Shown here: positions 4,030 through 27,603 of the stretch, piece after piece | Layout of the letters: each line of letters starts with the position of its first letter | Numbering within the stretch: position 1 is the first letter of the stretch | Source: Acaryochloris marina MBIC11017 | GTDB taxonomy: Bacteria > Cyanobacteriota > Cyanobacteriia > Thermosynechococcales > Thermosynechococcaceae | Length of the DNA: 32,000 nucleotides | Assembly: GCF_000018105.1 (NCBI RefSeq) | Contig: NC_009925.1 | Location: 4,470,001 to 4,502,000 of the forward strand | Direction: 5' to 3' | Made by a program: the position numbers and the translations under genes | Notes under the pieces: generated by a model | The model's input: only the letters and a program-made list of their open reading frames with translations | Told to the model about the DNA's origin: nothing | The model's database searches: none

Positions 4030-4233
4030 AAATCTAAAGGAACAACTCGATTAATACGTATATCAATCATGCCCTGTCCTGACTGCTTTGTGCAGGGGCT
4101 AACTAATAATGCCTAAATGCTCAACCATTCACTTATTTATTCACAAAGGTAGTCTTGGAATACCTAGACGCTATTCTATATAAAATTTTCAATGTTTTAA
4201 TCTTGTAGCTTAGTAAATGCTCTACTACGAAAA

Positions 4234-4923
4234 ATGCCTAATCCAAAACTGTCTTCCTTCGCAAATATTTCTCTTCTAGAAAGATTAACAAAACAAGATA
4301 TATTTAAAACTTTCTTAAATTTAGCGCTTTACTTATCTTTTATTCTTCCGTTGTCAGAAAAAATCCACTTCCCAGATATCAATAGTCCTTGGAAGGATTT
4401 TACGCGTGAGATAGCTCTTATTTTTCTCTTATCAGGCTTTGGTTTTAGCTACTGGATATCCGGATTCTATATTAGATTCTGGCTCATATCTATAAGAATA
4501 GAACTAGAATTCAGAATCAAAATCATTGGATCATCACTAGGGGTACGCTCCGATCAAGATAAATCGCCAATGGCCATATATGTCAGAAATACTGACTTTT
4601 TAATGATGTCTGACATTGTCTCTTACCTTTCAAAAAATGAAAATAAATTCCTGGAAAAAATATATGAAGAAAGGCTAGAGATGAATAAAAAATATAGACT
4701 TAATAAAGAAAATACTGTTACTACCTTAACCTTGTGTTTACTTCATTGGTATTTCAAAAGTGAATTGTTTTTATTTTTTGTAAAATACACTCCTGATTTT
4801 TTGCCAGCTATTGTTCTAAGTATGCTTCTTTGGGCATCTGCTGAACCTTTTCCTGAAGGTAATAACTATTTTCATGTCCCAGGGAATCCTATACGAGATT
4901 CAAAGAGCAGAAAACAAAGTTAA
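4234..4923 (+). CDS. Hypothetical integral membrane protein in an AT-rich islet (orphan)
   Basis: 229-aa ORF with an ATG start and about 4 predicted hydrophobic helices. I recognise no family motif. The coding sequence is about 27-28% G+C by hand count of two 60-nt lines, against about 50-60% in flanking genes. Confidence 0.5.
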   Translation: MPNPKLSSFANISLLERLTKQDIFKTFLNLALYLSFILPLSEKIHFPDINSPWKDFTREIALIFLLSGFGFSYWISGFYIRFWLISIRIELEFRIKIIGSSLGVRSDQDKSPMAIYVRNTDFLMMSDIVSYLSKNENKFLEKIYEERLEMNKKYRLNKENTVTTLTLCLLHWYFKSELFLFFVKYTPDFLPAIVLSMLLWASAEPFPEGNNYFHVPGNPIRDSKSRKQS

Positions 4924-5000
4924 TTACATTATGATTTCGGTGAAATTGTATCTACTTTAAACTCTAGGACTGTTTCAAGTTCACTAGAGCTAAATCAACT

Positions 5001-5023: not shown

Positions 5024-5321
5024 ATGGAAGATGTTTCATACCAATTTCGTGTGGAGATAGACTGTTTGACTCCAATGATTGGCATATCTTCAATGCTTTC
5101 GATGAACTATACAGGTCATTTAATTGGGTAATTGGTATCACTTCCAATCCGTAAGGTTGGACTATAATTCCTGTTCTTAGTTGCAAGCAACAGGAAATTT
5201 ACCTTGCCTAGATTCAAAAGTGCTGAAAACTTGATAGTCGTACAAAGTATTTATAAGGATCGACACACGTAAGAATGGTAGCTCTAAATTTTCTCTCAGG
5301 AATTTGAAAGTATCTGAGATT

Positions 5322-5825
5322 TTAAGTCGATTCCCCTGGCACAAACTTTAGAGATACGCCGTTCATACAATAGCGTTTTCCAGTCGGCCTAGGCCCATCA
5401 TTAAAAACATGACCTAAGTGTCCACCACAGCGACGACAGTGAACCTCAGTACGAGGCAACACCAGAACATAATCCGTTGAAGTGTCTACCGCTCCTTTGA
5501 TAGGTGCATAAAAGCTGGGCCAGCCTGTCCCGCTGTCAAACTTAGTTGCAGAGGTAAACAGAGGTAAATCACACCCTGAACAACGATAAAGCCCCTCGCC
5601 ATATTCCTTATCTAACAGGCTACTCCGGGGACGTTCTGTTCCTTTCTCTCGCAGAACATGGAACTGCTCAGGAGTGAGAGTTTGGCGCCACTCTTCTTCT
5701 GTTTTAGTGACTTCAAATACTTCAGCAGCCATCGCCTTGCCAGATAACCACTTGGGTAAAAAACTCGAAAACCCTGTTGTTCCCATAACTACTGTTCCTA
5801 CCTTCAGTAAGGCTCTTCTTTTCAT
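5322..5825 (-). CDS. msrB: Peptide-methionine (R)-S-oxide reductase MsrB with an N-terminal twin-arginine-type signal peptide
   Basis: Two zinc CxxC pairs ('CSGCDLPLF' and 'CRRCGGHLGHVF') and the catalytic 'RYCMNG'. The N-terminus 'MKRRALLKVGTVVMGTTG...AMAA' looks like a Tat/Sec export signal. ATG start. Confidence 0.93.
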   Translation of the reverse strand: MKRRALLKVGTVVMGTTGFSSFLPKWLSGKAMAAEVFEVTKTEEEWRQTLTPEQFHVLREKGTERPRSSLLDKEYGEGLYRCSGCDLPLFTSATKFDSGTGWPSFYAPIKGAVDTSTDYVLVLPRTEVHCRRCGGHLGHVFNDGPRPTGKRYCMNGVSLKFVPGEST

Positions 5826-6030
5826 AATTCGATCTCTGAACTAATGTGTCACAGCCCGTCCTAAAACAACGACTCGACCCATTTTTCAGGATAAACGAAA
5901 TCCTCCTAACACTGGTCTAGATATTTCAAGAAACGCGATACCTCAGGGGGTTGATACCACTGTCTAGACTGATTCATCCATCAAACTTGCTTTGGGCAAC
6001 CTTCTACAAGCATGAGAAACGAATCGAAAC

Positions 6031-6067
6031 TTGCTAAATCATACTCATAACGAGTATGATTTAGCAA
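6031..6067. repeat. Perfect 16-bp inverted repeat TTGCTAAATCATACTC-ATAAC-GAGTATGATTTAGCAA
   Basis: I checked 6031-6046 base by base as the exact reverse complement of 6052-6067, with a 5-nt loop. It lies in the 770-bp divergent intergenic region between msrB and the ABC exporter. Confidence 0.8.
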
Positions 6068-6219
6068 AGGCGTTGTCATAACGACTGTGTATCACACCCA
6101 AAACATACAGATCACCTAAACGAATTATCTGCCAACACTAACCGCTGGTTTAACCTGCCTCATTATCAATAGCCATGCTACTTATTCGTTCTCACTAATT
6201 GGTCAACTGAGGAGGAGCA

Positions 6220-6402
6220 ATGTTTACTCCCTTATTCTCGACTGCTATTTCCCTACATTTAGCTATCCCTTCGCCAACTCAGGGTCGCCCTCAAAAGTTA
6301 GGAGCTATTGAGCTCATCACGTTCGGTCTATTGCTATTTGGGATTAAAGTGACTTCTAATCACGTAGCCAATTTGTTGCTGAACCAGTTTATTAGCGGGT
6401 AG
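6220..6402 (+). CDS. Possible small membrane protein (60 aa)
   Basis: ATG preceded by a strong Shine-Dalgarno GGAGGAG at 6211-6217. One hydrophobic helix, 'AIELITFGLLLFGI'. No recognisable family, and short ORFs are often spurious. Confidence 0.3.
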   Translation: MFTPLFSTAISLHLAIPSPTQGRPQKLGAIELITFGLLLFGIKVTSNHVANLLLNQFISG

Positions 6403-6596
6403 ATATCCTGAAAAAGATCAAGGCCATACAGTAAGCAGACTGGTCTTAGTTGTGATATCTGTGACTTTTCGATTGGCTTGGAAACCTATCCAGAGACAAC
6501 AGTAAAACATCTGTGCAGAAAATTGTATTATGATGTAGTATGCGATAGGAGCCTGCAAATAGAGAAATTTTCACAGCAGGTCAAGTTTTCCACCTC

Positions 6597-8414
6597 ATGG
6601 CCAGCTACAAAGATATTGTCCGATACTATCGGCAATACTGGGGGATTTCTTTGCTCAGCATTGCCGCTGCCAGCCTGTTTGAAGTGATTGATCTGGTGGT
6701 TCCTTACGCCATTGGTCAAATCCTCAACGTGCTGTCCAGACAGCCTTTGGATGCCCCCCTGCAAGCCTTAATCGCTCAAATTTCAGCGATCACCCGTTTA
6801 CCCATCAACCGTTCCCTATCCTTGTGGACGTTGCTCGGTATCATCTTTGTGGTGACGGTGGTGCGGGCTCCGATTCAACCCTGGATTGGTAGCTGGTTTC
6901 ATTGGGCGATACCGTTAAGGGCAAAACGAGATCGCACACGACAAGTCCTCAAAAAAATCCTCACTCTGCCCTTAGATTTCTACGATGAAAACAATCCTGG
7001 GCGTATTGCAGGCCGGGTCGCTAGGGGCGTAACAAACCACACCTGGACCTATCCCGAAATTGCTGGACAGTTCATTCCCAAGCTCATGCGAGTTCTGGGT
7101 ATTTTCATCATCATTGGTTTGATTGAGTGGCCCATCGCCATCATTTTTCTGATCTCATTTATCGTCATTTTCACCTTTAGCCTGTGGGACTTACGGTTAC
7201 TGATCAAGCGAGAAGAAGTCCTGGATCGCTATATCGAAAATACCGAGAGTCGCACCTCAGAAATCATTACCAATATCAAAACCGTCAAAGCATTTGCTAC
7301 AGAAGCTGCCGAACTAGAACGCCAGCAGCAGCGGCTTGATCGTGAAATGCAGGTGGTTCTCTTCCGCATTCACAAAGGCTATGTCAAGCTTGCCACCTGG
7401 CAACGAACCATAGTACAAGCTTGTGTGTTTGGAGTTTTGACGCTGACTCTGATTGCAACAGTCCGGGGCGATATTTCTCTGGGACACTTTGTCACCACGC
7501 TGACTATCTCCAGCATGGCCTATGCCGAAATTGAGCCCTTAAGTATGGTGGCCGAAATCTTTGCTCGTCGCTATGCCTCCATGTTGCGACTCCATGAATT
7601 TATGCAGCAATCCGATGGTGCGGATGCATCCAGTCTCAGTCAAGAGCCAGTCCACCAAAATCCCTATCGGTTCTCTGGCCATCTGGAATTGCAACAGGTC
7701 AGCTTTGGCTACGATCCAAAGCAACCCATACTACAAGATATCAATCTGACCATTAAGCCACGCCAAACCGTTGCCCTGGTTGGACGTTCAGGCTCGGGGA
7801 AATCCACCTTAGTCAAACTCCTATTTCGCTATTTCGAACCCCATGCAGGACAGATCCTCATGGATGGTCAAGATATCCGATCGCTGGATGTGAGCCGATA
7901 TCGCCGCCGATTAGCCATCGTTCATCAAGATGTTGATATCTTTAACGGCACCATTCTCGAAAATCTCATCTATGGGAATCCCACCGTCAGTTTTGAGCAA
8001 GTTCAATCTGCCTGTGCCATTGCCAAGGTAGAGGAGTTTGTCCACCAGCTTCCTCAAGGCTATGCCACTGTTGTGGGAGAGCGAGGGGTTAGACTATCAG
8101 GCGGGCAACGCCAGCGCCTGGGTATTGCTCGGGCCTTGATTGTCAATCCAGATGTTCTGGTTTTTGATGAGGCAACCTCTAGCCTTGACTATGAGTCGGA
8201 ACGCACGATTCAACTCGCCATGCGTTCTCTTCTCGGAACGCGAACGCTAATCATTATCGCCCACCGCCTGAGCACCGTCCGGGAGGCAGATCAAATTGTT
8301 GTTCTTGATCAAGGCCGGATTGCAGAGGTGGGAAACCATGATCAACTGCTGCACCAGGGCGGCATTTACCATCGGCTCCATACTCTGCAAGAAACAGGTG
8401 AGTTGCGGGTATAG
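6597..8414 (+). CDS. ABC transporter, fused permease/ATPase (type I exporter, MsbA-like)
   Basis: 605 aa with an N-terminal 6-helix TMD. Walker A 'GRSGSGKST', signature 'LSGGQRQR', Walker B 'LVFDEATS' and H-loop 'IAHRL'. Confidence 0.92.
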   Translation: MASYKDIVRYYRQYWGISLLSIAAASLFEVIDLVVPYAIGQILNVLSRQPLDAPLQALIAQISAITRLPINRSLSLWTLLGIIFVVTVVRAPIQPWIGSWFHWAIPLRAKRDRTRQVLKKILTLPLDFYDENNPGRIAGRVARGVTNHTWTYPEIAGQFIPKLMRVLGIFIIIGLIEWPIAIIFLISFIVIFTFSLWDLRLLIKREEVLDRYIENTESRTSEIITNIKTVKAFATEAAELERQQQRLDREMQVVLFRIHKGYVKLATWQRTIVQACVFGVLTLTLIATVRGDISLGHFVTTLTISSMAYAEIEPLSMVAEIFARRYASMLRLHEFMQQSDGADASSLSQEPVHQNPYRFSGHLELQQVSFGYDPKQPILQDINLTIKPRQTVALVGRSGSGKSTLVKLLFRYFEPHAGQILMDGQDIRSLDVSRYRRRLAIVHQDVDIFNGTILENLIYGNPTVSFEQVQSACAIAKVEEFVHQLPQGYATVVGERGVRLSGGQRQRLGIARALIVNPDVLVFDEATSSLDYESERTIQLAMRSLLGTRTLIIIAHRLSTVREADQIVVLDQGRIAEVGNHDQLLHQGGIYHRLHTLQETGELRV

Positions 8415-8418
8415 TCCA

Positions 8419-8462
8419 GTCTCTGGCTCTCTTTCCCTAGCAAGGGTAAGAGAGCCAGAGAC
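8419..8462. terminator. Long hairpin between the convergent ABC exporter and the 8486..9811 gene
   Basis: GTCTCTGGCTCTCT (8419-8432) is the exact reverse complement of AGAGAGCCAGAGAC (8449-8462). An inner CCCT/AGGG pair extends the stem. It starts 5 nt after the ABC stop codon. No U-tract, so it may be a non-canonical terminator or an RNA-stabilising element. Confidence 0.45.
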
Positions 8463-8485
8463 CACAGCAGGAAATTGATTAAGGG

Positions 8486-9811
8486 TCAGTCTCTAGAAAA
8501 TTGGTAAAAACTCTGTCCCTTTGGTTGCCTACTAGAAGCCACTGTGACCTTTGAAGCATGCTCAGGTGTAAACTCAACAGCCTGGGTATCAGAATGATCT
8601 AATTTGACTACAGGTCGATCTGATGGTGGCAGAATGTGGGTTGCCTTTAACTCAGGTACATAGGTTTCATAGGGATGAAAGGGCTTCAAAATTAGAAATG
8701 AATAAAAAGTTGAAGCCCCTAATAACGTCGGCCAAAAAATCAGTTTGGGAATGATGTTGTCTTCATAGGAAATGAACTTGAACTGGCTGGAATACTTATC
8801 ATGAGTAAATAAGTAGGCATCCACTGCCACCCCGAGTAAAGCCGTATACATGGCCAGATAGAAATACTCTATATAAATAATTCCAGATCCTGGAAACTCT
8901 TGCCGAATCTGAATATGGGCAATCAGCACAACGAAGAATAATGCTGAACATACCCCCAACACTCCAGAGGTATTGAAGCCAAAAATATCTGCTTGCCCTT
9001 CCCTAGCAGTGATAGTCAGCAATGTCGCAAACAATAAAATGGCTGAAATCAGCAGTGGAACTAAGTTGACAATAAAGGCCCCTAAAAATTCTCGTCTAAG
9101 CACAATATTGAAATAGAGTTCTGGTGTTTCTGGCAAGGGTTTGTCCAAGCCAAAATCCATATCATACCGGGGCGTTTTGAAGTCAAAAAATGTCTCTTCG
9201 ACTTTCCAATCCCCCAGCACAATACTTTTATCAAATCCAAAGGCATCTCCAGGTTGAGTGGACGAATAAGCCTTGAGATCGGGAACCAGGACGTTACTTC
9301 GACCAAAGTCTTTACCCCAAATTCGGATCCAAACGGTTTTGTGGTCTAGCGGGTATTTTTGATAGTTAAAGCGCTGCTTTAAGGTTGATTCAAAATACCA
9401 ACCAATCACCTCTTCTTGATCATTAATGTCACGTCGATAGGCTTGTTGGGGTTCTAGATTCTCACCCGAATCAACGGCTTCTGGCAATATAAACCCAACC
9501 GGCACGTCCTGGTCGGCAGGAATATCGGCAAAGACTGATTTATTATACTTCTGCCAAATATAGCCTGTGATATTTACTTCAGTAGCATTGTTGAACTTGA
9601 GAGACTGTAAAAAGACCCCTGTTGGAATCGCATCAGATTCTTTGAGGGATACCCCACGCTTTTTTAGGTGGGGAATAATCTCGCCTTCCTTTGCAAGCTG
9701 CTCTAAGTTGGGCTGATACGAATGATCAATCCGAAACCACATCAGACCAATCAGCACGATAAAGAAAATTGAGGTCCCTGAAGAAATCCACCACCAGCGT
9801 TTTGTATTCAT
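8486..9811 (-). CDS. Membrane protein resembling a prokaryotic pentameric ligand-gated ion channel (Cys-loop superfamily)
   Basis: The listed ORF starts at TTG 9820, and the in-frame ATG at 9811 (MNTKRWWW) is more likely. Layout is an N-terminal anchor, a ~215-aa extracytoplasmic domain and 4 TM helices. 'YQKYPLDHKTVWIRIW' matches the FPFDxQxxxLxF Cys-loop signature. Pre-M1 'IVLRREFLGAFIVNLVPLLISAILLF' carries the conserved Arg and M1 Pro. The post-M2 segment is 'EFPGSGIIYIEYFY'. Confidence 0.45.
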   Translation of the reverse strand: MNTKRWWWISSGTSIFFIVLIGLMWFRIDHSYQPNLEQLAKEGEIIPHLKKRGVSLKESDAIPTGVFLQSLKFNNATEVNITGYIWQKYNKSVFADIPADQDVPVGFILPEAVDSGENLEPQQAYRRDINDQEEVIGWYFESTLKQRFNYQKYPLDHKTVWIRIWGKDFGRSNVLVPDLKAYSSTQPGDAFGFDKSIVLGDWKVEETFFDFKTPRYDMDFGLDKPLPETPELYFNIVLRREFLGAFIVNLVPLLISAILLFATLLTITAREGQADIFGFNTSGVLGVCSALFFVVLIAHIQIRQEFPGSGIIYIEYFYLAMYTALLGVAVDAYLFTHDKYSSQFKFISYEDNIIPKLIFWPTLLGASTFYSFLILKPFHPYETYVPELKATHILPPSDRPVVKLDHSDTQAVEFTPEHASKVTVASSRQPKGQSFYQFSRD

Positions 9812-10000
9812 CACTTGCAACCGTTCAAGTTCAGTAGAATCGTGCCACTAAGCGGAAGTAACAGGAATTCTACTAAAGTCGAAGGGCTTGTATTGGCCTG
9901 GTGACGTTGAACGTGGCTTCCCAGTGCATCTAAAGTGCCAGTGAGCAGCCAATCTCAAAGGCTAGGAACTATGGGCCAGGGATTCTCCTCTTTCACGCAC

Positions 10001-10037
10001 TAAAAAAGCAGGATTTCCAATGAAAGGAAATCCTGCT
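10001..10037 (-). terminator. Rho-independent terminator of the petCA operon
   Basis: 12-bp perfect stem (10007-10018 / 10026-10037, AGCAGGATTTCC/GGAAATCCTGCT) with a 7-nt loop. On the minus strand TTTTTT (complement of 10002-10007) follows it. It lies 30 nt downstream of the petA stop. Confidence 0.8.
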
Positions 10038-10066
10038 GATTTCAAAGAAATGAATCGTGTGATGTG

Positions 10067-11014
10067 TTAGAAGTTCATTTCGGCAGCTTGGACTTTCTCG
10101 ACTTGCTTCTTCTTTAGAACCAGAAGTGTTTGAGAAATCATAATGGCTGAGAAGAAGACCATCAACCACTTAATCCGAGTGCCACTCTGCAACACAATTT
10201 CGGTATCTTTTTGACCAAAACCACCCACATTGGGGTCAGAACTGAGGGGGGCACCATCAGCCACAGCCTGTCCTTCTGAGACCACAACTTCTAAACCAGC
10301 GGGAATCGACTCAGTGACGGTCTGACCATCATTAGTGGTGATGGTCACGGAATTTTCACTGACGCTGCTGACTAAACCGGCAGCAGGAGAAGTAACGGCA
10401 TTGACGTTCGTCTTGTCACCTGTGGGATAAATCTGACCACGCCCACGGTTACCACCTGCATGAACAGAGTATTTGCCAAAGTGGATATTGGGATCTGTTG
10501 CTGGGTCAGGAGAAAGGACGGGGAAGATAATTTCCTGGTGGTCAGCACCCGATAGAGGGCCGACGACGATTACATTATCCGTATCAGGCTTGTACTTCTG
10601 GTAAAAGACGCCGTTAATCTCTTCCTTCATCTTTTCAGGAATCCGATCATCGGGGGCAATTTGGAAGCCATCGGGCAGCATCAGAACTGCACCAACATTT
10701 AGAGGACCTAGGTCACCGCTACCTAGGACTTGCTGGGCATCCGTGTCATAAGGAATTTTGATAACGGCCTCAAACACTGTATCGGGTAGGACGGCCTGGG
10801 GGACTTCTACTTGGGTGGGCTTAGCTGCAAGGTGGCAGTTAGCACAAACAATACGACCGTTGGCTTCTCTAGGGCTATCGTAGGCTTGTTGAGCGTAGAT
10901 TGGAAAAGCCTGAGCAGCTTGGGGTAAGGAAAAGACGCTAGTGACGACAAGGAAGAGCGCAGCCAGGAGGCGAAGGCTCTTTTTCGTCAAGACGGATAAA
11001 AGGCTTTGCTTCAT
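10067..11014 (-). CDS. petA: Apocytochrome f
   Basis: Signal peptide followed by the mature N-terminus 'FPIYAQQAYDSPREANGRIVCANCHLA' (heme CxxCH), and a C-terminal TM anchor. ATG start. Confidence 0.97.
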   Translation of the reverse strand: MKQSLLSVLTKKSLRLLAALFLVVTSVFSLPQAAQAFPIYAQQAYDSPREANGRIVCANCHLAAKPTQVEVPQAVLPDTVFEAVIKIPYDTDAQQVLGSGDLGPLNVGAVLMLPDGFQIAPDDRIPEKMKEEINGVFYQKYKPDTDNVIVVGPLSGADHQEIIFPVLSPDPATDPNIHFGKYSVHAGGNRGRGQIYPTGDKTNVNAVTSPAAGLVSSVSENSVTITTNDGQTVTESIPAGLEVVVSEGQAVADGAPLSSDPNVGGFGQKDTEIVLQSGTRIKWLMVFFSAIMISQTLLVLKKKQVEKVQAAEMNF

Positions 11015-11087
11015 TAGTCTATCAATTGAAACCTGACAAGATGTGACGGGGCAGAAGGGATAAATCAGCTTAAACGTTCAAGGAAAC

Positions 11088-11627
11088 TTAGACCCACCAG
11101 GGATCCTTATCTGTACGGAAATCAGTTTCTGTCCAGGTTGTGAACACCAGCTTGCCATCTACATCTTCTGCATGAACGAGGGCCAAAGATAATGGTGCAG
11201 GCCCTCGCACCACCTTGCCGGTTGAATCATACTGTGACCCATGACAAGGGCAAATATATTTGTTTTGGCCTGCATTCCAGGGAACAACACAACCCAAGTG
11301 AGTACAGACCGCATTTAGACCATAGTCTGCGATCTCATTGCTATCTGTGACAACAACGTAGGTTGGATCTCCTTTGAAACCTTGGGTTAAAGTGCGGTCA
11401 CCCGGGCTATGTTCTGCCAAAAACTCACTGACCACAACGTCGTTACCAAGGGCGTCTTTGGCGTTCAGCCCACCCCCAGATCCTCCACTCGAAGGAGGAA
11501 TAAAGTACCTGACGACAGGGTATAACCCACCTAACGCGGTGCCGGTAATTGCACCAAAGGTCAGCAAATTCATAAATTGACGCCGCCCCATATCGGGGAC
11601 GTCAGAAGATCCAGAGACTTGAGCCAT
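11088..11627 (-). CDS. petC: Cytochrome b6f Rieske iron-sulfur subunit
   Basis: Tat-type 'RRQFMNLL' and Rieske boxes '[10 protein letters not shown]' and 'CPCHGSQY'. It lies directly upstream of petA. Confidence 0.97.
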
Positions 11628-11936
11628 GATTTACGGTGATGTTACTGATGTAATGGACAGCATTAGAGCCTGACCCTATGGAATTGCTCATGCTCGGAAT
11701 AGTGTATTCCTAACTCAGAATTGATCTGTGATCGATGACTGAGTTAAAGACATGTTGCAAATCACCATCAGGTGTCATAACATTTCTTGACATTATTATC
11801 ACACTTGATGAGCCCGTATTTCATACGAAATGTAAATTCATTGCGGCCAATCCCAGGATCTACCTTATCTGTGAGCTTGCTTCTCCTTCCCAGGACAGGA
11901 CAGAATAGAGACTTCACAGACATGGGATGAAGGCGG

Positions 11937-21413: not shown

Positions 21414-22046
21414 TTAGAGCTGCCCTAACAACTGGGGCAGATTCACAATCTCAGGAAACTTGGTGATCACTTGAGAGCAGGATTGGACAAACCCTTTGAT
21501 CCATTTTTGAGCCAGCTCTTTTTGCTGTTCGTCTAGGGCTTGGGCCGGATCGGCTGCATAGGTAACGGGTTGCGATCGCTGAATTTGAAACTGTTCAAAC
21601 CAGTCGCTTTGAGGGCGGGCGGCCTGTAAATAATTAGTAGTAATCGCTGCACCTAAAAAAGTAGTGCTACTCTCTTGGAGCTGATTCAAAATTTTAAGCA
21701 ATACATCCACTGTAACCGTAGGTTTAGGCGGACTGGCAGCTGGTGCAGGCTGAGGAGCATTTGCACCTTGATCCGAGGCTGAAGATTCCCCCAAAATTGC
21801 AAAGATCCGCTGTTCAACCTCTTTTAATTGGGGCTGAGGGGTAAACGATTGTGCAGTTAACCCTTGGTGATACTGAACGAGGGTCTCTAACTGCCGGACC
21901 ATCAGATCAATTTCTCCCCCACTATAGAGGCTCTTTAAGACCTGCTCGAGATCCATAAAGGTGGAAAAGTCATCGCCCATATCCTCTACTTGCGATAAAT
22001 ACGGATCTTTCTGCCGATACAGCTTCCGTATGTAGTAATTGGTCAT
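21414..22046 (-). CDS. Hypothetical protein with a central Pro/Ala-rich linker
   Basis: The listed ORF starts at TTG 22088, and the in-frame ATG at 22046 (MTNYYIRKLY) is more plausible. No recognised domain. It is divergent from the V4R operon. Confidence 0.5.
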   Translation of the reverse strand: MTNYYIRKLYRQKDPYLSQVEDMGDDFSTFMDLEQVLKSLYSGGEIDLMVRQLETLVQYHQGLTAQSFTPQPQLKEVEQRIFAILGESSASDQGANAPQPAPAASPPKPTVTVDVLLKILNQLQESSTTFLGAAITTNYLQAARPQSDWFEQFQIQRSQPVTYAADPAQALDEQQKELAQKWIKGFVQSCSQVITKFPEIVNLPQLLGQL

Positions 22047-22683
22047 GGGTGAAATCTTGGTGGGCACAATCGAACCTTTACTGCGCAAATAAGGTCAAAG
22101 AAGTAGATTATAAGGTGAAGCTCCTTTATTTAGGTTACACATTTTTTCAGATTGATCAGACACTAAAACAACCGCTAGTGAAAGAAAAAAGTGCCTGGAG
22201 GTCAAAACTCGAGAAAACGGAATTGTTGGGCTGAACGAAGACGTTCGAATTTATACGAAAATAGAATAAAAGGACTGCAAATCCGTAATTTCACCGATTT
22301 AGCCGCATCGATGAATATGTAATCCTAGTAAATATTATTTACAAAAAAATATTTTTTCATTGTTTGCATAACCAGGCTTCTTAGACTTTAAAATGCGGCT
22401 CAAAAGTGAATATTCAAATCCAGTGAGTGATGCTTTGCATATACGACTTATGGGTATTCTGCTAAACGTGTGTTTTCCACAGACAAAATCTGCATCATTA
22501 AATCTGCCTGATGAGTAGAATCGAACTTTAAAAAGGGGCATTCTTTAGATAGACAAAGTTCTCTGCACGGTTCGCGATTCCAGAGGACACTTGTTGGCTT
22601 ATCAGTCTTAGGTCCATTTGAGCCTTTGCTAAGTAACGAATGCCCATTCGTCATTGAAATTACATAAAAAAGGGTTAGTCTCA

Positions 22684-23397
22684 ATGGTTTTTACACCAGC
22701 TGAAACCGCTACCAGTGTGCCTGTAGGTAATACTGGTCGTTCATTCAAGCAATCGTACCCTCACAAGCTAAATCACTACCGCTTTGAGGATTTCTTTACC
22801 TTCAATCATTCAAAAGGCACTATCGATGATTGGCATGAATCTCGCAATATTCTGGCGAGTGAAGATTTTATTGTGGCCCTGATCGAAGGTTTAGAACAGG
22901 AAGTCGGTAGTGCTTCAACGGTCGTGATGTATAACATCGGCCAAGAGTGGGGCAAGCAAGATGCGGTCTTTTTCCAAAATTGGTTTGAAGCCCAATTCCA
23001 ACAATCTCTGCGCAAATGCCGCCCCTCTCTTGCTTTAGAAGCCTGGTGGTGGCCCTTTACTAGCCAAGGCTGGGGAAACTGGGAAGTTGATTTGGATAAT
23101 CAGCAAAACGGTTTTATGTTTATCAACATTTTCGATTCTGCGGTTGCTCGCACCCTTGGAGATGTCGGCAAGCCCGTCTGCCATATCTATGCAGGTTTAT
23201 TCGCCGGTTTCTTCTCCCACCTCGTGAATAAAGAACTGAGCTGTATCGAAACCCAATGCTATGCCATGGGAGAAACCTACTGTAAGTTTTTGCTGGGTAA
23301 ACAAGATCGCATTGATGCCGCCACCTTTTGGCAAAACGAAGGAGCTACAGCCCGAGATATTGAAACTAAGCTGCAGGGTGGAGAATATCTATCGTGA
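22684..23397 (+). CDS. V4R (4-vinyl reductase / BchJ-like) domain protein, paralog 1
   Basis: The ATG at 22684 is preferred over the listed TTG at 22654. C-terminal V4R signature 'PVCHIYAGLFAGFFSHLVNKELSCIETQCYAMGETYCKFLLG' (C..aG...G....E..C...G...C.F). The N-terminal part 'RNILASEDFIVALIEGLEQEVGSASTVVMYNIGQEWGK' is as in BchJ/XylR-N type proteins. Confidence 0.75.
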   Translation: MVFTPAETATSVPVGNTGRSFKQSYPHKLNHYRFEDFFTFNHSKGTIDDWHESRNILASEDFIVALIEGLEQEVGSASTVVMYNIGQEWGKQDAVFFQNWFEAQFQQSLRKCRPSLALEAWWWPFTSQGWGNWEVDLDNQQNGFMFINIFDSAVARTLGDVGKPVCHIYAGLFAGFFSHLVNKELSCIETQCYAMGETYCKFLLGKQDRIDAATFWQNEGATARDIETKLQGGEYLS

Positions 23398-23747
23398 ATA
23401 GTTGGAAATATCTAACAGTTCGTGAGTTCTTAGAAGGATATAACTGGTCAGGAGAATCCATTCTCCAAGCTGACCCTATCCCTGAGGCAAGTGAGTCTAT
23501 TGCGTGGCAACGTCAGACGGTCCAGACATTTTTCAGTCAATTCAATTGGACAGGACGCCTGATAGAGAAACCAATGATGGTTGCTACCGCTCCATCCTTC
23601 TCTACACGTTTAAATGTGCAGGCATTTTTTCAGCATTTTATCTGGGAGGGGCAACCTAATATTGCAGCGATGCCCAGCATTCCCTCATCATCCCCAATCA
23701 CCCTTGAGGATGATCTGAATCTAAATGACTTCTCCGATATGTTTTGA
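23394..23747 (+). CDS. Small protein with a triple Trp-containing repeat (V-x-x-F-F/L-x-x-F/Y-N/I-W-x-G)
   Basis: The GTG start overlaps the upstream stop (GTGA), and GGTGGAG lies 10 nt upstream. The repeats are 'VREFLEGYNWSG' (aa 9-20), 'VQTFFSQFNWTG' (43-54) and 'VQAFFQHFIWEG' (75-86). The tail is acidic. Confidence 0.6.
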   Translation: MNSWKYLTVREFLEGYNWSGESILQADPIPEASESIAWQRQTVQTFFSQFNWTGRLIEKPMMVATAPSFSTRLNVQAFFQHFIWEGQPNIAAMPSIPSSSPITLEDDLNLNDFSDMF

Positions 23748-23755
23748 GGATTACC

Positions 23756-24241
23756 ATGCAATCGAACTTTGAAGATTATCTGCGGGCCGCAGAAGATCAC
23801 TACTTACAGACCCCAGAAATGAACGGTTTCAAACAGCAGGTCGATGCTTTGCAAGATCGACTGGCCCTTTATGAAACCTTACGAGATCAAGAACTGATTA
23901 TTTTTCAGGCCATTGCCGATCAGTTAAACAAGGAGACCTTCTCTAATTCCCAATCTGATCAGGAGAAGGTGTTTACCCACTGGATGTCGGTGTTGCGCTA
24001 TAGCGCCATGGCCATGCTCACGGATCAACCTCAAACCCTTACCATCCAACTGAGCTGGCTGAAGGATGTGGTTGGTGACAGTGAATTTACTGCCCTCCAC
24101 CAGAAGATCAGTGAGCTGCTGCACGCGAGTTTGAGTTCTGTCTTATCGGAGAGCCAACTTGCCTCGCTTGAGCCATTTTTAACGGAGGCAAATCGCACTC
24201 TGGTCGGCCAAAGCAGCCCCGAATTAGCAATGTTGAGTTAA
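23756..24241 (+). CDS. Phycobiliprotein-fold (globin-like, PF00502-type) protein lacking the chromophore Cys
   Basis: ATG at 23756 with TGAGGA 5 nt upstream (the listed TTG at 23744 is rejected). It is 161 aa and all-helical. 'AAEDHYLQTPEMNGFKQQVDALQDRLALYETLRDQELIIFQAIADQL' aligns with the phycobiliprotein X-Y-A-B helices. The Cys-x-Arg-Asp position reads F-T-H-W. Confidence 0.55.
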   Translation: MQSNFEDYLRAAEDHYLQTPEMNGFKQQVDALQDRLALYETLRDQELIIFQAIADQLNKETFSNSQSDQEKVFTHWMSVLRYSAMAMLTDQPQTLTIQLSWLKDVVGDSEFTALHQKISELLHASLSSVLSESQLASLEPFLTEANRTLVGQSSPELAMLS

Positions 24242-24259
24242 TGACCAGAGGAAATAAAT

Positions 24260-24931
24260 ATGATTGCTGTTGAAGAATTAATTGGTCAAAACCACATCCC
24301 AGGTAATTTCTTTGCCCCTGAAGTCTATGTGCAAGGAGATACCGAACTAGGGCTAATCGAGAATCGGGAAGGATCTCGCCTCATTGCCCTTCCGGACACC
24401 CTACTCAAATCTTTATACAGTAGCTTAGAACATGAGGTCGGTCCTGCTGCCGATTTAGTTCTACTGCAATGTGGTCGTTGGTGGGGCAAGAATTTTTACC
24501 GCCGATTTGCATCAGAAGTCAGCGACTACTATGGAAAGCCCTTGGCAGAGATGGAAATGGTGGAATTCCTACAGTCCTTTAAGGAATGCTGGAAAACCTA
24601 TGGCTGGGGCCTAATCGATTTTGATTTTAGTCACCACCACCAAGGATTTTTGGTGATCACGACCCAGAATTCGGCGTTCGCCCAGGGCCGGGAAACAGGA
24701 GATAAGCCGTCTTGCTTCGTCGAAAGGGGGCTCCTGAGTACCTTTTTTAGCCAACTGACTGGCCGAGAGTTAGACGGCGTGCAAACATCCTGTGAGTCAA
24801 TGCAAGCCGATTGCAATCGCTTTATTCTAGGCCTACCTGAGCGCATGAAAGCAGCTGAAGCTTGGGTCAAAGAAGCTCAGGATCATGACACTATCCTTGC
24901 TCGGTTATGTGATAGCCAAGCTACAGGGTAA
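24260..24931 (+). CDS. V4R (4-vinyl reductase / BchJ-like) domain protein, paralog 2
   Basis: ATG with AGAGGA upstream. 'PSCFVERGLLSTFFSQLTGRELDGVQTSCESMQADCNRFILG' is a V4R signature. N-terminal 'SRLIALPDTLLKSLYSSLEHEVGPAADLVLLQCGRWWGK' parallels paralog 1. Confidence 0.75.
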   Translation: MIAVEELIGQNHIPGNFFAPEVYVQGDTELGLIENREGSRLIALPDTLLKSLYSSLEHEVGPAADLVLLQCGRWWGKNFYRRFASEVSDYYGKPLAEMEMVEFLQSFKECWKTYGWGLIDFDFSHHHQGFLVITTQNSAFAQGRETGDKPSCFVERGLLSTFFSQLTGRELDGVQTSCESMQADCNRFILGLPERMKAAEAWVKEAQDHDTILARLCDSQATG

Positions 24932-24979
24932 ACCAATGTTGATGCAGTTGATGAGTATTCCACTTTGGAGAAGTAAGCA

Positions 24980-25462
24980 ATGGCCAAAATAGTTAGGTTA
25001 GATCCGATTGGTCAAGAAACAAGCGTGCCGACCAACGATAACTTGCTGTCAGCATTGCTTAAGAACGAGTTGAAAGTCCTCCATGAATGTGGCGGACGTG
25101 GGATGTGTGCAACCTGCCATATTTTCATTAAGGATGGCATGGAGCATTTATCTCCCATGAGTCGCCGAGAACGGCGGACTTTAGGGGTGATCACGACCTG
25201 CAAACTGAATTCTCGCCTCGCTTGTCAAAGCAAAGTCATGGGGGAAGGCGTCGTAGTTGAACTCCCGGCGGGTATGTACCTCAGTGATGTCAGTGACATC
25301 GAGAGCTTAATCGGACGTCGAGCGGAAGAGAATATCCTTCATCCTCTGGATGGTCGGGTCTTAGTTGAAGCTGGAAAGCTGATTACCCGGTCCATGATCA
25401 GCCAACTGGAAGAAACTCGCAGTGATGTGTCCACTCACTTAGCTAATTCACAACTTGTATAA
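24980..25462 (+). CDS. 2Fe-2S ferredoxin-domain protein with a ~70-aa C-terminal extension
   Basis: Cluster ligands 'CGGRGMCATCH' (C-x5-C-x2-C) plus 'LACQ' about 35 residues later. The ferredoxin domain covers about aa 1-95. I do not recognise the rest, 'SDVSDIESLIGRRAEENILHPLDGRVLVEAGKLITRSMISQLEE'. Confidence 0.8.
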   Translation: MAKIVRLDPIGQETSVPTNDNLLSALLKNELKVLHECGGRGMCATCHIFIKDGMEHLSPMSRRERRTLGVITTCKLNSRLACQSKVMGEGVVVELPAGMYLSDVSDIESLIGRRAEENILHPLDGRVLVEAGKLITRSMISQLEETRSDVSTHLANSQLV

Positions 25463-25489
25463 CAACAGATTTTATCTGGGGGAAATAAT

Positions 25490-25957
25490 ATGCTGTCACA
25501 ATTGAAGCGACTGAATATTGAAACAGATGGTCGCTATGCCACTGAGGCAGATCTAGCCTTTTTGAAGTCCTACTTGCAATCCGTGCGCGACCGTATTAGC
25601 GCCTATGAAAAGATTAGAGATGCTGAAGATGCAATTACGGATCAAGCAGACGAAGTTTTAATGGCTGCAGATCCCAAGGTTTTTCATAAGGGGTCGCAGG
25701 ATTATTCCGAAACGTGTCGCCGAGATCGCAGAAACACATTGCGTCATGCCGCAGCAGCCATGCTATTTAACGATTTAGACCGCCTGCGAGATGGCCTCCT
25801 ACTCTGGCAAAGAACCATTGTACATGCCGTCAAGGATGAGCAGGCCTCTGCCCTGACTTGGCAAGAGATGCCGGGGGTATTGAAAGACCATCTATCCGAT
25901 GAGGAAGCAGAGTTAATGATGCCTGCGCTCCGCCTCAATCAGGCCTTATTAAATTAA
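25490..25957 (+). CDS. Phycobiliprotein-fold protein retaining the Cys-x-Arg-Asp bilin-attachment motif
   Basis: 155 aa. 'ETDGRYATEADLAFLKSYL' matches 'DAEARYLSPGELDRIKAFV' of ApcA. 'SETCRRDRRNTLRHAAAAML' matches '[20 protein letters not shown]'. Cys76 (codon 25715-25717) aligns with chromophore Cys81/84, and Arg78-Asp79 align with the bilin-contacting Arg/Asp. Confidence 0.6.
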   Translation: MLSQLKRLNIETDGRYATEADLAFLKSYLQSVRDRISAYEKIRDAEDAITDQADEVLMAADPKVFHKGSQDYSETCRRDRRNTLRHAAAAMLFNDLDRLRDGLLLWQRTIVHAVKDEQASALTWQEMPGVLKDHLSDEEAELMMPALRLNQALLN

Positions 25958-26002
25958 TCATTACAGAACCATTATTGAGCGTTTTTAGGGTTTCTAGAAA
26001 TT

Positions 26003-27019
26003 ATGTCAGCCTCACAAAATACACCCGGGAGTAACAGTAGCTCCCATTGGCTTGATCTTGCTGAATCATTGGCGGTTATTGCCGCCATCAGTGGCTCGGT
26101 AGCCGCCATCGTCGTAGAACAAATCGCTGTTGCTTCGATCCCTTTGGCCCTATCTGCCACCCTAGGACTGGCCAATCGTCGACGTCAAATTGGCGCATTC
26201 CAAGATCAACAACGGATGGAAATGGCGCATTTGCTCCAACAGAACCAAGCGGATTTCCAAGCTCAGTTAGACCCAATTAAGCAGGCCAGTGAAGGGGTAC
26301 AGTCTCAAATTGAGCATCTCACCAAGCAGGATACTCAAACCGTACAAACGATTGCCACCCTCAATACTCAGACTGAAAAACTAGAATCAACTATTGCATC
26401 CCTGCAAAACAATCACAAGCAAGGGGAAGCAACAGTCATCTCCTTGGGTGAGCAAAGCCAAGCCACTCAAGCCCAGATGGAGGAGTTGGCAACTCAGGTG
26501 CAAACCATACAAGCTGCGATTGCAGAACTGCAATCTTCGGCTACAGACCTAGGAAGTCAGGTGGAAGATCAAAAGAGTAGTGCCCAATATCTCGCGGCTC
26601 AGACAGAAGGGGTTGAAGAACTGGTTGATATCCTGCGAGAGATTGATGCCCTCACCCAAACCATTTCAGCCCATCCCAACGTGGCCAAGCATTTCTTTGA
26701 TCGAGGGATGACCCGTAAGCGCCTGCAGCGACTTGAGGATCAGCGCGTAGCCATGGAAGATTTTTCCCAAGCTATCCGCTTAGAGCCCACCTTCGCCCAT
26801 GCCTACTATGAGCGTGGGTTACTGAAATCTGAATTTGGTCATAAACAGCATGCTGTCGATGATTTGCGCACCGCGGCTAAGTTCTATTTTGATCAAGGGG
26901 ACTTAACCCAGTACGAGAAGGCCCGAGAGTTGAGTCAAGAGATTCACGACCTAATTGCCGGGTCTCCCTCCCCAGAAGAGGAAACCGAACAGTTCTTGAT
27001 CGAGAACCTGTTCGGTTAA
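26003..27019 (+). CDS. Membrane-anchored coiled-coil protein with C-terminal TPR repeats
   Basis: The N-terminal hydrophobic hairpin is 'LAESLAVIAAISGSVAAIVVEQIAVASIPLALSATLGLA'. A ~150-aa Gln/Thr-rich heptad region follows ('QTVQTIATLNTQTEKLESTIASLQ...'). The C-terminus has TPR-like repeats ('AMEDFSQAIRLEPTFAHAYYERGLLKSEFGHKQHAVDDLRTAAKFY'). Confidence 0.65.
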   Translation: MSASQNTPGSNSSSHWLDLAESLAVIAAISGSVAAIVVEQIAVASIPLALSATLGLANRRRQIGAFQDQQRMEMAHLLQQNQADFQAQLDPIKQASEGVQSQIEHLTKQDTQTVQTIATLNTQTEKLESTIASLQNNHKQGEATVISLGEQSQATQAQMEELATQVQTIQAAIAELQSSATDLGSQVEDQKSSAQYLAAQTEGVEELVDILREIDALTQTISAHPNVAKHFFDRGMTRKRLQRLEDQRVAMEDFSQAIRLEPTFAHAYYERGLLKSEFGHKQHAVDDLRTAAKFYFDQGDLTQYEKARELSQEIHDLIAGSPSPEEETEQFLIENLFG

Positions 27020-27048
27020 AGCCAACGCTTTTATCTCTAAACATCCAT

Positions 27049-27080
27049 TGCCCGTAGCGCTGATTTTACTGCTGCGGGCA
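27049..27080 (+). terminator. Hairpin terminator candidate downstream of the seven-gene operon
   Basis: 10-bp stem TGCCCGTAGC / GCTGCGGGCA (one G-U pair) with a 12-nt loop, followed by GTGTGTTG. It lies 30 nt after the 26003..27019 stop, between convergent genes. Confidence 0.5.
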
Positions 27081-27099
27081 GTGTGTTGAGCAACCCTCA

Positions 27100-27603
27100 C
27101 TACTGAGTTGCTGCCTGAGCAAACTTAGCGAGCGCTTGCTCAATTTTGGTCAACACCGCGTCACAGCCCTCTAACTGGTGACGTTGTGCCAAATATTGAG
27201 GGTTGTTATAAAACAGCCAAACTTTGCCTGTTTTATCTTCCCGAATCAGCGCCTTTTGGGGTAAATCAATGGCTGCGGTGGGACTGCATTGCATCAGCGG
27301 TGTGCCCACCTTAGGATTACCAAACACCACCACTTCCGTGGGGGGCAGAGATTTGCCGACAGACTGAGCCCCAGCTGCATGATCAATCCGGGTAAAGACC
27401 GTCATACCTTTGCTCTTTAACACCGTAACCAGCCGATCTGCAGTGATGGGCACTGAATATTGGCTTTCCACATGAATTAACCCTTGCTCGTCCGCCATTT
27501 CAGCCGAATGCTCAGAGTCAGATTCTGCCATGGCTAGATGAGGAACCGCTCCCAACGATAAACAGCAGGTACAGCCCATCAGCAATAACAGTCTCGACAA
27601 CAT
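27100..27603 (-). CDS. Exported DUF302-domain protein
   Basis: Signal peptide MLSRLLLLMGCTCCLSLGAVPHLAMA. 'TVFTRIDHAAGAQSVGKSLPPTEVVVFGNPKVGTPLMQ...AAIDLPQKALI' matches the DUF302 pattern as I recall it. Confidence 0.65.
   Translation of the reverse strand: MLSRLLLLMGCTCCLSLGAVPHLAMAESDSEHSAEMADEQGLIHVESQYSVPITADRLVTVLKSKGMTVFTRIDHAAGAQSVGKSLPPTEVVVFGNPKVGTPLMQCSPTAAIDLPQKALIREDKTGKVWLFYNNPQYLAQRHQLEGCDAVLTKIEQALAKFAQAATQ

Follow-up and report, generated by a model that had tools for sequence, protein, structure and literature searches.

A predicted Slr0149-like globin with a Cys-x-Arg-Asp site in a conserved seven-gene cluster of Acaryochloris marina MBIC11017

Introduction

The proteins closest to the one described here were grouped by Rockwell, Martin & Lagarias 2023 (PMC10151467), who defined the "bilin biosynthesis-associated globins" (BBAGs). 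In that scheme, slr0149-type proteins form the cyanobacterial BBAG clade, which descends from globins of the pre-PcyA clusters and is the sister of the light-harvesting phycobiliproteins; the presence of a CXRD motif in cyanobacterial BBAGs was recorded in the same work. Bilin binding has been demonstrated only for the non-cyanobacterial BBAG-1, BBAG-2 and BBAG-3, which bind bilins in E. coli without lyases, and the resulting adducts combine a low fluorescence yield (3-7%) with a phycobiliprotein-like CD signature (PMC10151467). BBAG-1 and BBAG-3 carry the CxRD motif, and their adducts were characterised after acid denaturation, BBAG-1 being poorly chromophorylated; BBAG-2, in which the CXRD motif is absent, also binds biliverdin (PMC10151467). 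The function of slr0149-type proteins was described as non-essential and possibly not conserved (PMC10151467). What remains of the gene set through which cyanobacteria acquired PcyA is believed to survive as the slr0144-slr0149 cluster.

In Synechocystis sp. PCC 6803, slr0149 lies in the pap operon, for which later papers cite Wegener et al. 2008 and which extends over slr0144-slr0152. The operon has been tied to the assembly and repair of PSII and, on some evidence, to PSI, and its expression goes down in iron limitation and oxidative stress and up in carbon-rich conditions. The clearest PSII phenotype in the operon is that of the TPR protein Slr0151, and the link of the operon to PSII or PSI may rest mainly on this protein. 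Slr0148 is Fed5, an adrenodoxin-like, dispensable ferredoxin (PMC4284462), and V4R domains bind small hydrophobic ligands, chlorophyll precursors being suspected among them. As for Acaryochloris spp., Partensky et al. 2018 stated that the genes annotated as "apcA" are slr0149 homologues, that they adjoin homologues of slr0144-0148 and slr0151-0152, and that an allophycocyanin alpha subunit is an unlikely product of these genes.

We have analysed a window of 32,000 nucleotides of A. marina MBIC11017 DNA. The original prediction, made from the sequence of this window, had singled out the open reading frame 25490..25957 as an orphan phycobiliprotein-like gene whose product keeps a Cys-x-Arg-Asp chromophore site, and a nearby frame, 23756..24241, as a paralog that has lost it.

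Identity and Fold of the 155-aa Globin

The product of the 25490..25957 gene is 100% identical to ABW29446/WP_012164761 of A. marina MBIC11017, a protein that UniProt names "Allophycocyanin alpha subunit ApcA" and that NCBI now names "globin family protein". The Pfam profile PF00502 (Phycobilisome) matches it over nearly the full length, positions 5-148 (of 155) of the profile corresponding to residues 9-147 of the 155-aa globin, with a score of 55.9 bits (E 6.5e-15) against a gathering cut-off of 22.2 bits. An AF2 model calculated from an alignment of 36 homologues consists of seven helices (mean pLDDT 87.2, pTM 0.79), and in a Foldseek comparison this model superposes over 150-160 columns on chains of ApcF and of allophycocyanin alpha/beta, with TM 0.79-0.84. 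In the AF2 monomers of both globins of the window (the 25490 and 23756 products), the N-terminal helices have pLDDT values of 54-66. Sequence identity between the 155-aa globin and solved phycobiliproteins is 18-23%. The likeness to ApcF/beta-18, CpcB and ApcA extends to the fold, the N-terminal X-Y helices, the helix-E Cys-x-Arg-Asp and the LR[YH] that comes after it; the protein differs from the antenna subunits in that every NCBIfam equivalog cut-off is missed about tenfold and in that its gene is not part of an alpha/beta antenna operon.

Close homologues, 83 in number, are about 155 aa long each. Slr0149 of Synechocystis sp. PCC 6803 belongs to the same family, as do the proteins encoded by three Synechocystis-genus loci of our survey (L032, L055 and L062); the orthologues from this genus have 155-156 aa, are 40-45% identical to the A. 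marina protein and carry the CXRD motif in the form TEICRRD. Judging from these comparisons, the 25490..25957 product is almost certainly the A. marina MBIC11017 copy of Synechocystis Slr0149.

The Cys-x-Arg-Asp Site

Codon 76 of the gene is TGT (25715-25717) and is followed by CGC CGA GAT, which encode R77, R78 and D79; Cys76 is the sole cysteine of the protein. It had been proposed from an alignment made by eye that Cys76 falls on the bilin-attachment cysteine of phycobiliproteins, with Arg78 and Asp79 on the Arg/Asp pair that contacts the chromophore. When the protein was compared by phmmer with PDB chains, ETCRRDRRNTLRHAAAAM fell on the chromophore-site stretch of ApcF and on the equivalent stretches of ApcA and CpcB. 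This register was reproduced when a profile of 36 family sequences was aligned with ApcF, A. marina CpcB and C-PC beta (E ~1e-8). Both procedures thus agree on the cysteine column in ApcF, CpcB and ApcA, and the Arg78/Asp79 pair keeps the same register in the HMM and profile alignments. In composition-preserving shuffles of the 155-aa globin, a CxRD occurred anywhere in the protein in 0.9% of cases and at the aligned column with a frequency of 7.5e-5; because the motif is so rare in shuffles, we consider it inherited and not a coincidence. The HMM match, the alignments, the fold match and the rarity in shuffles together bear out the alignment of Cys, Arg and Asp that had been made by eye.

In all alignments, a deletion of 4 residues relative to canonical phycobiliproteins lies directly N-terminal to Cys76. 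As placed by the phmmer and profile alignments, the deletion takes out the turn that bears Arg77/Arg78 of the beta subunits. In C-PC beta subunits, these two arginines have a role in propionate contact.

Conservation of the site was followed in 80 Slr0149-like proteins, namely those encoded in the 73 loci of the survey described below and the window's own. Aspartate is present in 80/80 and arginine in 77/80 (96%), whereas positions that flank these two columns vary; cysteine is present in 51/80 (64%). The remaining 29 proteins carry Trp (10), Phe (9), Tyr (6), Ala (2), Thr (1) or Ser (1) in place of the cysteine; orthologues from Xenococcus PCC 7305 (L014) and Altericista CCNU0014 (L060) are examples with an aromatic residue. 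Complete CxRD is retained in Acaryochloris, Synechocystis and Thermosynechococcus. The near-invariance of Arg and Asp therefore argues for a conserved ligand contact, and since Cys is replaced in 29 of the 80 proteins, covalent attachment cannot be the conserved function of the Slr0149-like family. As read from these alignments, covalent attachment appears to be lineage-specific and the Arg-Asp pair to be the conserved feature of the family. Where a bulky aromatic residue stands in place of the cysteine, it could fill part of the pocket.

The Cys-Less Paralog

Homologues confirm that the gene for the second globin starts at ATG 23756, as had been proposed. Its product is an exact match to ABW29443 and contains no Cys at all. 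Taken singly, this protein matches PF00502 marginally (E 0.003); the profile is matched by 20/23 members of the Slr0146-like family, with a best E of 4.9e-13. An hhalign comparison of the Slr0146-like and Slr0149-like family profiles gave a probability of 98.3% and an E of 1.4e-14 over 149 columns. The AF2 model of the 161-aa globin has a pLDDT of 81.6, and its top Foldseek matches, at TM ~0.6, come without exception from phycobiliproteins or from the PB domain of ApcE. By profile comparison and predicted structure, then, the 23756..24241 product is a true phycobiliprotein-family relative. The family to which it belongs is small: a profile search with Slr0146-like proteins through 1.84 billion representatives retrieved 258 proteins at E ≤ 1e-3.

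The loss of the chromophore site from this protein, as originally predicted, is seen in every alignment, Cys, Arg and Asp all being absent. The more specific claim that F-T-H-W stands opposite C-R-R-D is upheld by hhalign, with a one-residue gap (F73 = Cys76), but BLASTP and the profile alignment to PC-beta both put V-F-T-H opposite C-R-R-D, one residue off the F-T-H-W register. Because these methods disagree, the register of the paralog is uncertain by one residue. His75 (161-aa numbering) is found at the Asp79 column in all alignments. Among the Slr0146-like partners, this His is present in 50/58 and the Trp next to it in 56/58, and an N-terminal AEDHYL motif is invariant. In the BLASTP alignment, five Slr0146-like partners, from Snowella and relatives, have a Cys at the canonical-Cys column.

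A Conserved Seven-Gene Cluster

The features of the locus are listed in Table 1. Seven co-directional genes follow each other with a spacing of 8-48 nt where they do not overlap, and the gene of the CxRD globin is the sixth. It had been called an orphan; this description has to be given up, since the gene is a member of a conserved seven-gene operon. The TPR gene closes the cluster at 27019; beyond it, the genes lie on the opposite strand.

Table 1. Features of the globin locus in positions of the window
Feature	Coordinates	Strand	Remarks
V4R-domain protein, Slr0144-like	22654..23397	+	PF02830 E 2.7e-23; cluster gene 1; start codon uncertain
Small Slr0145-like protein, 117 aa	23394..23747	+	4-nt overlap with upstream gene; position by phmmer
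Slr0146-like degenerate globin	23756..24241	+	161 aa; ABW29443; hhalign and AF2/Foldseek
Second V4R-domain protein, Slr0147-like	24260..24931	+	PF02830 E 2.1e-11; synteny
Adrenodoxin/ISC-type 2Fe-2S ferredoxin, Slr0148 (Fed5)-like	24980..25462	+	PF00111 E 7.3e-11
Slr0149-like globin (cyanobacterial BBAG)	25490..25957	+	155 aa; ABW29446/WP_012164761
Cys76-Arg77-Arg78-Asp79 codons, CxRD motif	25715..25726	+	codons read; aligned to Cys81/82/84-x-Arg-Asp of ApcF, CpcB, ApcA
Coiled-coil and C-terminal TPR protein, Slr0151-like	26003..27019	+	last cluster gene; TPR and coiled-coil matches; synteny

The 117-aa Slr0145-like protein has no match in Pfam or NCBIfam. It contains repeated motifs of the FFxxFNW[DET]G type and an acidic C-terminal tail. 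By phmmer, most loci of the survey have a protein of this kind in the corresponding place, and so have L075 and L077, and 93-aa ORFs at the Slr0145 position in L078 and L080 show the same motifs by eye. The ferredoxin has a C-terminal extension and scores 54.5 bits with TIGR02007 (fdx_isc), under the cut-off. The TPR matches of the 26003..27019 product are likewise all under the Pfam cut-offs, the best being TPR_9 (E 6.5e-6, 26.5 bits vs 35); the same product has long coiled-coil matches, and most loci have its gene downstream of the Slr0149-like one.

A survey of one genome per GTDB species yielded 73 loci, all of them cyanobacterial to judge by their titles except for one MAG labelled Gracilibacteria. 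The order V4R-145-146-V4R-Fdx-149-TPR is present in ~50 of the 73, Synechocystis spp. included, and most of the others are truncated by contig ends. The gene order is thus common to the Synechocystis pap operon and the window, the difference being that the window cluster is without the plant-type ferredoxin slr0150 and the Ser/Thr kinase slr0152; a seven-gene core without these two genes is the arrangement seen most often among the 73 loci.

BBAG-1 and BBAG-3, encoded in the pre-PcyA clusters of non-photosynthetic bacteria (PMC10151467), have the globin/phycobiliprotein fold and the CXRD motif in common with the 155-aa globin, and their clusters contain two V4R genes and a 2Fe-2S ferredoxin gene, as does the window. 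An example is L076, where the order is Fer2-V4R-145-like-globin(CTRD)-V4R-ParA-kinase ... HO, so that a lone CxRD globin occupies the Slr0146 position, whereas in the window the CxRD globin comes after the ferredoxin. The BBAG-1/BBAG-3 clusters also differ from the window in that they encode a bilin reductase, a heme oxygenase or both; in the window, genes for HO, PcyA or a lyase were looked for and not found. Nor does the window hold apcB, the neighbours of the 25490..25957 gene being V4R, ferredoxin and TPR genes. A promoter and terminator scan of positions 22000-27300 left the + strand empty and gave a lower number of sites than shuffled sequence did, a result that is uninformative for cyanobacterial promoters.

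Pairing of the Two Globins

Both the Slr0146-like and the Slr0149-like gene are present in 57 of the 65 loci with enough upstream flank. Six of the eight exceptions are of the Thermosynechococcus type, in which one V4R gene is accompanied by two tandem Slr0149-like genes, both with CRRD. The surroundings of a few distant family members were also inspected. In L075, the neighbours of an Slr0146-like gene are V4R genes and a kinase gene, and a search of 7 kb around it found nothing Slr0149-like. Two further arrangements bring the two kinds of globin together: in L078/L079, which are cyanobacterial and have a PBS linker gene adjacent, a globin with CxRD and a degenerate one without the motif are immediate neighbours, and L080/L081 contain a second such neighbouring pair in the opposite order. 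The pair of a CxRD globin and a degenerate globin therefore recurs in at least three cluster layouts and is not universal. The idea of an asymmetric pair, in which one subunit can be chromophorylated, is favoured by this recurrence of competent and degenerate globins side by side.

In Synechocystis, a proteome-wide complex map gives interactions among Slr0144-Slr0149 as validated; its AP-MS pull-down with Slr0149-GFP brought down Slr0146 with 7 PSM, Slr0144 with 6, Slr0147 with 6 and Slr0145 with 2. None of these four proteins appears in the passages of the control list that were consulted. Slr0146-like and Slr0149-like proteins are thus plausibly physically associated. Both V4R proteins come down with Slr0149-GFP beside Slr0146, and a specific 146/149 heterodimer is a tentative reading, somewhat less likely than not. 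A far-reaching version would make this heterodimer obligate and anciently asymmetric: the Cys-less subunit, with its His-Trp and AEDHYL, would bind a second tetrapyrrole, such as heme or a chlorophyll intermediate, which the V4R proteins would supply, and the pair would sense or pass on two ligands and in this way tie PSII assembly to the status of both bilin and chlorophyll. We regard this elaboration as improbable.

Proposed Role and Alternative Readings

The explanation that we prefer, and consider likely as a whole, is that the 25490..25957 product is an Slr0149 orthologue, i.e., a cyanobacterial BBAG encoded in a pap-type operon, which acts as a bilin-binding member of a non-antenna complex. 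Phycocyanobilin, the linear tetrapyrrole available in A. marina, would be bound in the canonical helix-E pocket of the 155-aa globin, with Asp79 directed to the pyrrole nitrogens and Arg78 to a propionate. A thioether to Cys76 would form without a dedicated lyase, as in BBAG-1 and BBAG-3. The globin would be part of a soluble or thylakoid-associated complex with its Cys-less paralog, the two V4R proteins, the Slr0145-like protein and the adrenodoxin-type ferredoxin. Such a complex might handle or report tetrapyrrole status, as a carrier or sensor with no part in light harvesting, and it could influence PSII assembly and repair via the TPR protein. Bilin binding by the 25490..25957 product is somewhat more probable than its absence, and covalent attachment via Cys76 in vivo is a nearly even matter that leans slightly to the negative; low fluorescence is to be expected by analogy with the BBAGs studied in E. 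coli. Points that weigh against this explanation are the restriction of demonstrated bilin binding to non-cyanobacterial BBAGs, the replacement of the cysteine in 29 of 80 orthologues, the deletion in front of Cys76, the lack of HO, pcyA and lyase genes in the window and the possibility that the photosystem link belongs mainly to Slr0151. We infer the role of the partner and the step that would lead from the ligand to PSII.

The database names offer a different reading, that of an allophycocyanin alpha subunit belonging to a vestigial Acaryochloris phycobilisome core. UniProt, GenBank and RefSeq label the protein or its close paralogs as allophycocyanin (alpha subunit ApcA), and the fold and the CxRD site are indeed common to ApcA and the 155-aa globin. 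However, the protein reaches 25.5 bits with the NCBIfam equivalog NF058521, for which the cut-off is 270 bits, it is just 18-23% identical to solved phycobiliproteins, and four residues are missing beside the chromophore Cys. No apcB is adjacent, and the V4R/ferredoxin operon in which the gene lies is kept across cyanobacteria that also have a true apcA. Weak fluorescence of the related BBAGs (PMC10151467) speaks against an antenna subunit as well, and the assignment was explicitly rejected by Partensky 2018. The NCBIfam score, the genomic context and the work of Partensky 2018 lead us to rule out the ApcA annotation of 25490..25957, and we consider it exceedingly improbable that the protein serves in this way.

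Two other readings leave the protein outside the antenna and assign less importance to the cysteine. In one of them, what the family has conserved is the ability to hold a tetrapyrrole non-covalently, be it bilin, heme or a chlorophyll intermediate received from the V4R proteins, and Cys76 is a lineage-specific extra. The optional nature of the cysteine, found in just 51/80 orthologues next to a near-invariant Arg and Asp, makes this a serious alternative. It agrees with the binding of biliverdin by BBAG-2, which has no CXRD motif (PMC10151467), and with the suspected affinity of V4R domains for chlorophyll precursors among small hydrophobic ligands; in addition, the His-Trp of the partner (50/58 and 56/58) and its invariant AEDHYL could serve a different ligand. 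Against it stand the retention of full CxRD in Acaryochloris, Synechocystis and Thermosynechococcus and the adducts of the CxRD-bearing BBAG-1 and BBAG-3, which were characterised after acid denaturation. On balance, we think it rather unlikely. The other reading dispenses with a chromophore altogether: the globin would serve a PSII-assembly complex as scaffold or structural subunit, with Arg and Asp needed for folding or protein contacts. The dispensability of the cluster, the conservation of the Slr0146-like partner despite complete loss of its site and the poor chromophorylation of BBAG-1 (PMC10151467) could all be explained in this manner. What it does not explain is that the invariant Asp and near-invariant Arg occupy exactly the two chromophore-contact columns while the flanks vary, nor that bilins are bound by BBAG-1 and BBAG-3 of the sister lineages (PMC10151467), so that we hold a scaffold role to be very unlikely.

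The bilin-binding, non-antenna role that we prefer is close to what had been predicted, a phycobiliprotein relative with a bilin site and a role outside the antenna, and it agrees with the view of the cyanobacterial BBAGs set out in PMC10151467. The CxRD finding is correct and already known: the motif was published in 2023, and the placement of the Acaryochloris genes in the slr0149 family dates from 2018. New here are the optional Cys combined with a near-invariant Arg-Asp, the recurrent pairing of a competent with a degenerate globin, and the location of the CxRD globin at the Slr0146 position in the HO-containing cluster L076. These comparative points refine an obvious experiment and do not open a new field. 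A practical consequence is that ABW29446 and the plasmid paralogs are not to be read as allophycocyanin alpha subunits, which bears on models of the Acaryochloris antenna.

Extra paralogous clusters were also seen on Acaryochloris plasmids.

Variant clusters and the possible ancestry of the two globins

The heme-oxygenase cluster of a Logan contig (L076) comprises genes for Fer2, V4R, a Slr0145-like protein, a globin with the Cys-x-Arg-Asp (CxRD) bilin-site motif, V4R, a ParA-like ATPase, a Ser/Thr kinase and heme oxygenase, the kinase being similar to that of Synechocystis slr0152. As can be seen from this layout, the sole CxRD globin holds the Slr0146 position, an arrangement that points to Slr0146 as the positional descendant of an ancestral bilin biosynthesis-associated globin and to Slr0149 as the duplicate.

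The reduced clusters of Thermosynechococcus and relatives have one V4R gene and, after it, two Slr0149-like genes in tandem, each bearing the CRRD motif; no Slr0146-, Slr0147- or Slr0148-like genes were found nearby. In four Snowella/Merismopediaceae loci (L023, L024, L034 and L036), the Slr0146-like site reads C-L-C-H-W, with one Cys falling in the column that is matched to the canonical chromophore Cys by BLASTP and profile alignments. Thus, the “degenerate” Slr0146-like partner is not universally Cys-less.

Paralogous clusters are also carried by conjugative Acaryochloris plasmids, namely pREC3 and a second plasmid, NZ_AP026077.1, in the order V4R, Slr0146-like, V4R, 2Fe-2S and “allophycocyanin”; the last name is a misannotation of the plasmid Slr0149-like genes, as it is of the copy in the window. 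IS110 and IS21 elements come after the plasmid-borne clusters.

Coordinates of the clusters and small genes compared
Feature	Locus	Position	Strand
Paralogous cluster	L074, A. marina MBIC10699 plasmid pREC3	265565-268873	
Heme-oxygenase cluster	L076, Logan SRR8389941 contig	5091-11888	
Reduced clusters	L008-L013, Thermosynechococcus and relatives	~4.7-6.5 kb within each locus	
Slr0145-like small protein	window	23394-23747	+
Slr0145-like counterpart	L075	6622-6942	
Slr0145-like counterpart	L077	1657-1974	
Slr0145-like counterpart	L078	6090-6371	
Slr0145-like counterpart	L080	492-773	
224-aa ORF, immediately upstream of seven-gene cluster	window	21414-22088	-

Small genes in and beside the cluster

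The Slr0145-like small protein had no match in Pfam and NCBIfam scans. Proteins of this type (93-117 aa) have an acidic tail, L[DN]DFSD[LM]F, at the C terminus, and an FFxxFNW[DET]G-like motif occurs in them two or three times. Their gene lies between the first V4R gene and a globin gene in all cluster architectures seen, the heme-oxygenase-containing one included. In the published Slr0149-GFP pull-down, Slr0145 is among the recovered proteins (2 PSM).

The 224-aa ORF, likewise without a match in Pfam and NCBIfam scans, has homologues adjoining the cluster, on variable strands, in ca. 22 of the 73 cyanobacterial loci and may be an unrecognised accessory gene.

Other features of the window

A 157-aa ORF (914-1387, +) has a Pfam hit to TIMP (tissue inhibitor of metalloproteinase), a domain unusual for a cyanobacterium, at 25.2 bits, marginally over the gathering score of 23.1 (E 1.6e-5). 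Between alaS and msrB, a 229-aa ORF (4234-4923, +) without a match in a Pfam scan lies within a stretch of low GC content (4001-5000; 0.33 vs. ~0.48 elsewhere) that may be foreign DNA.
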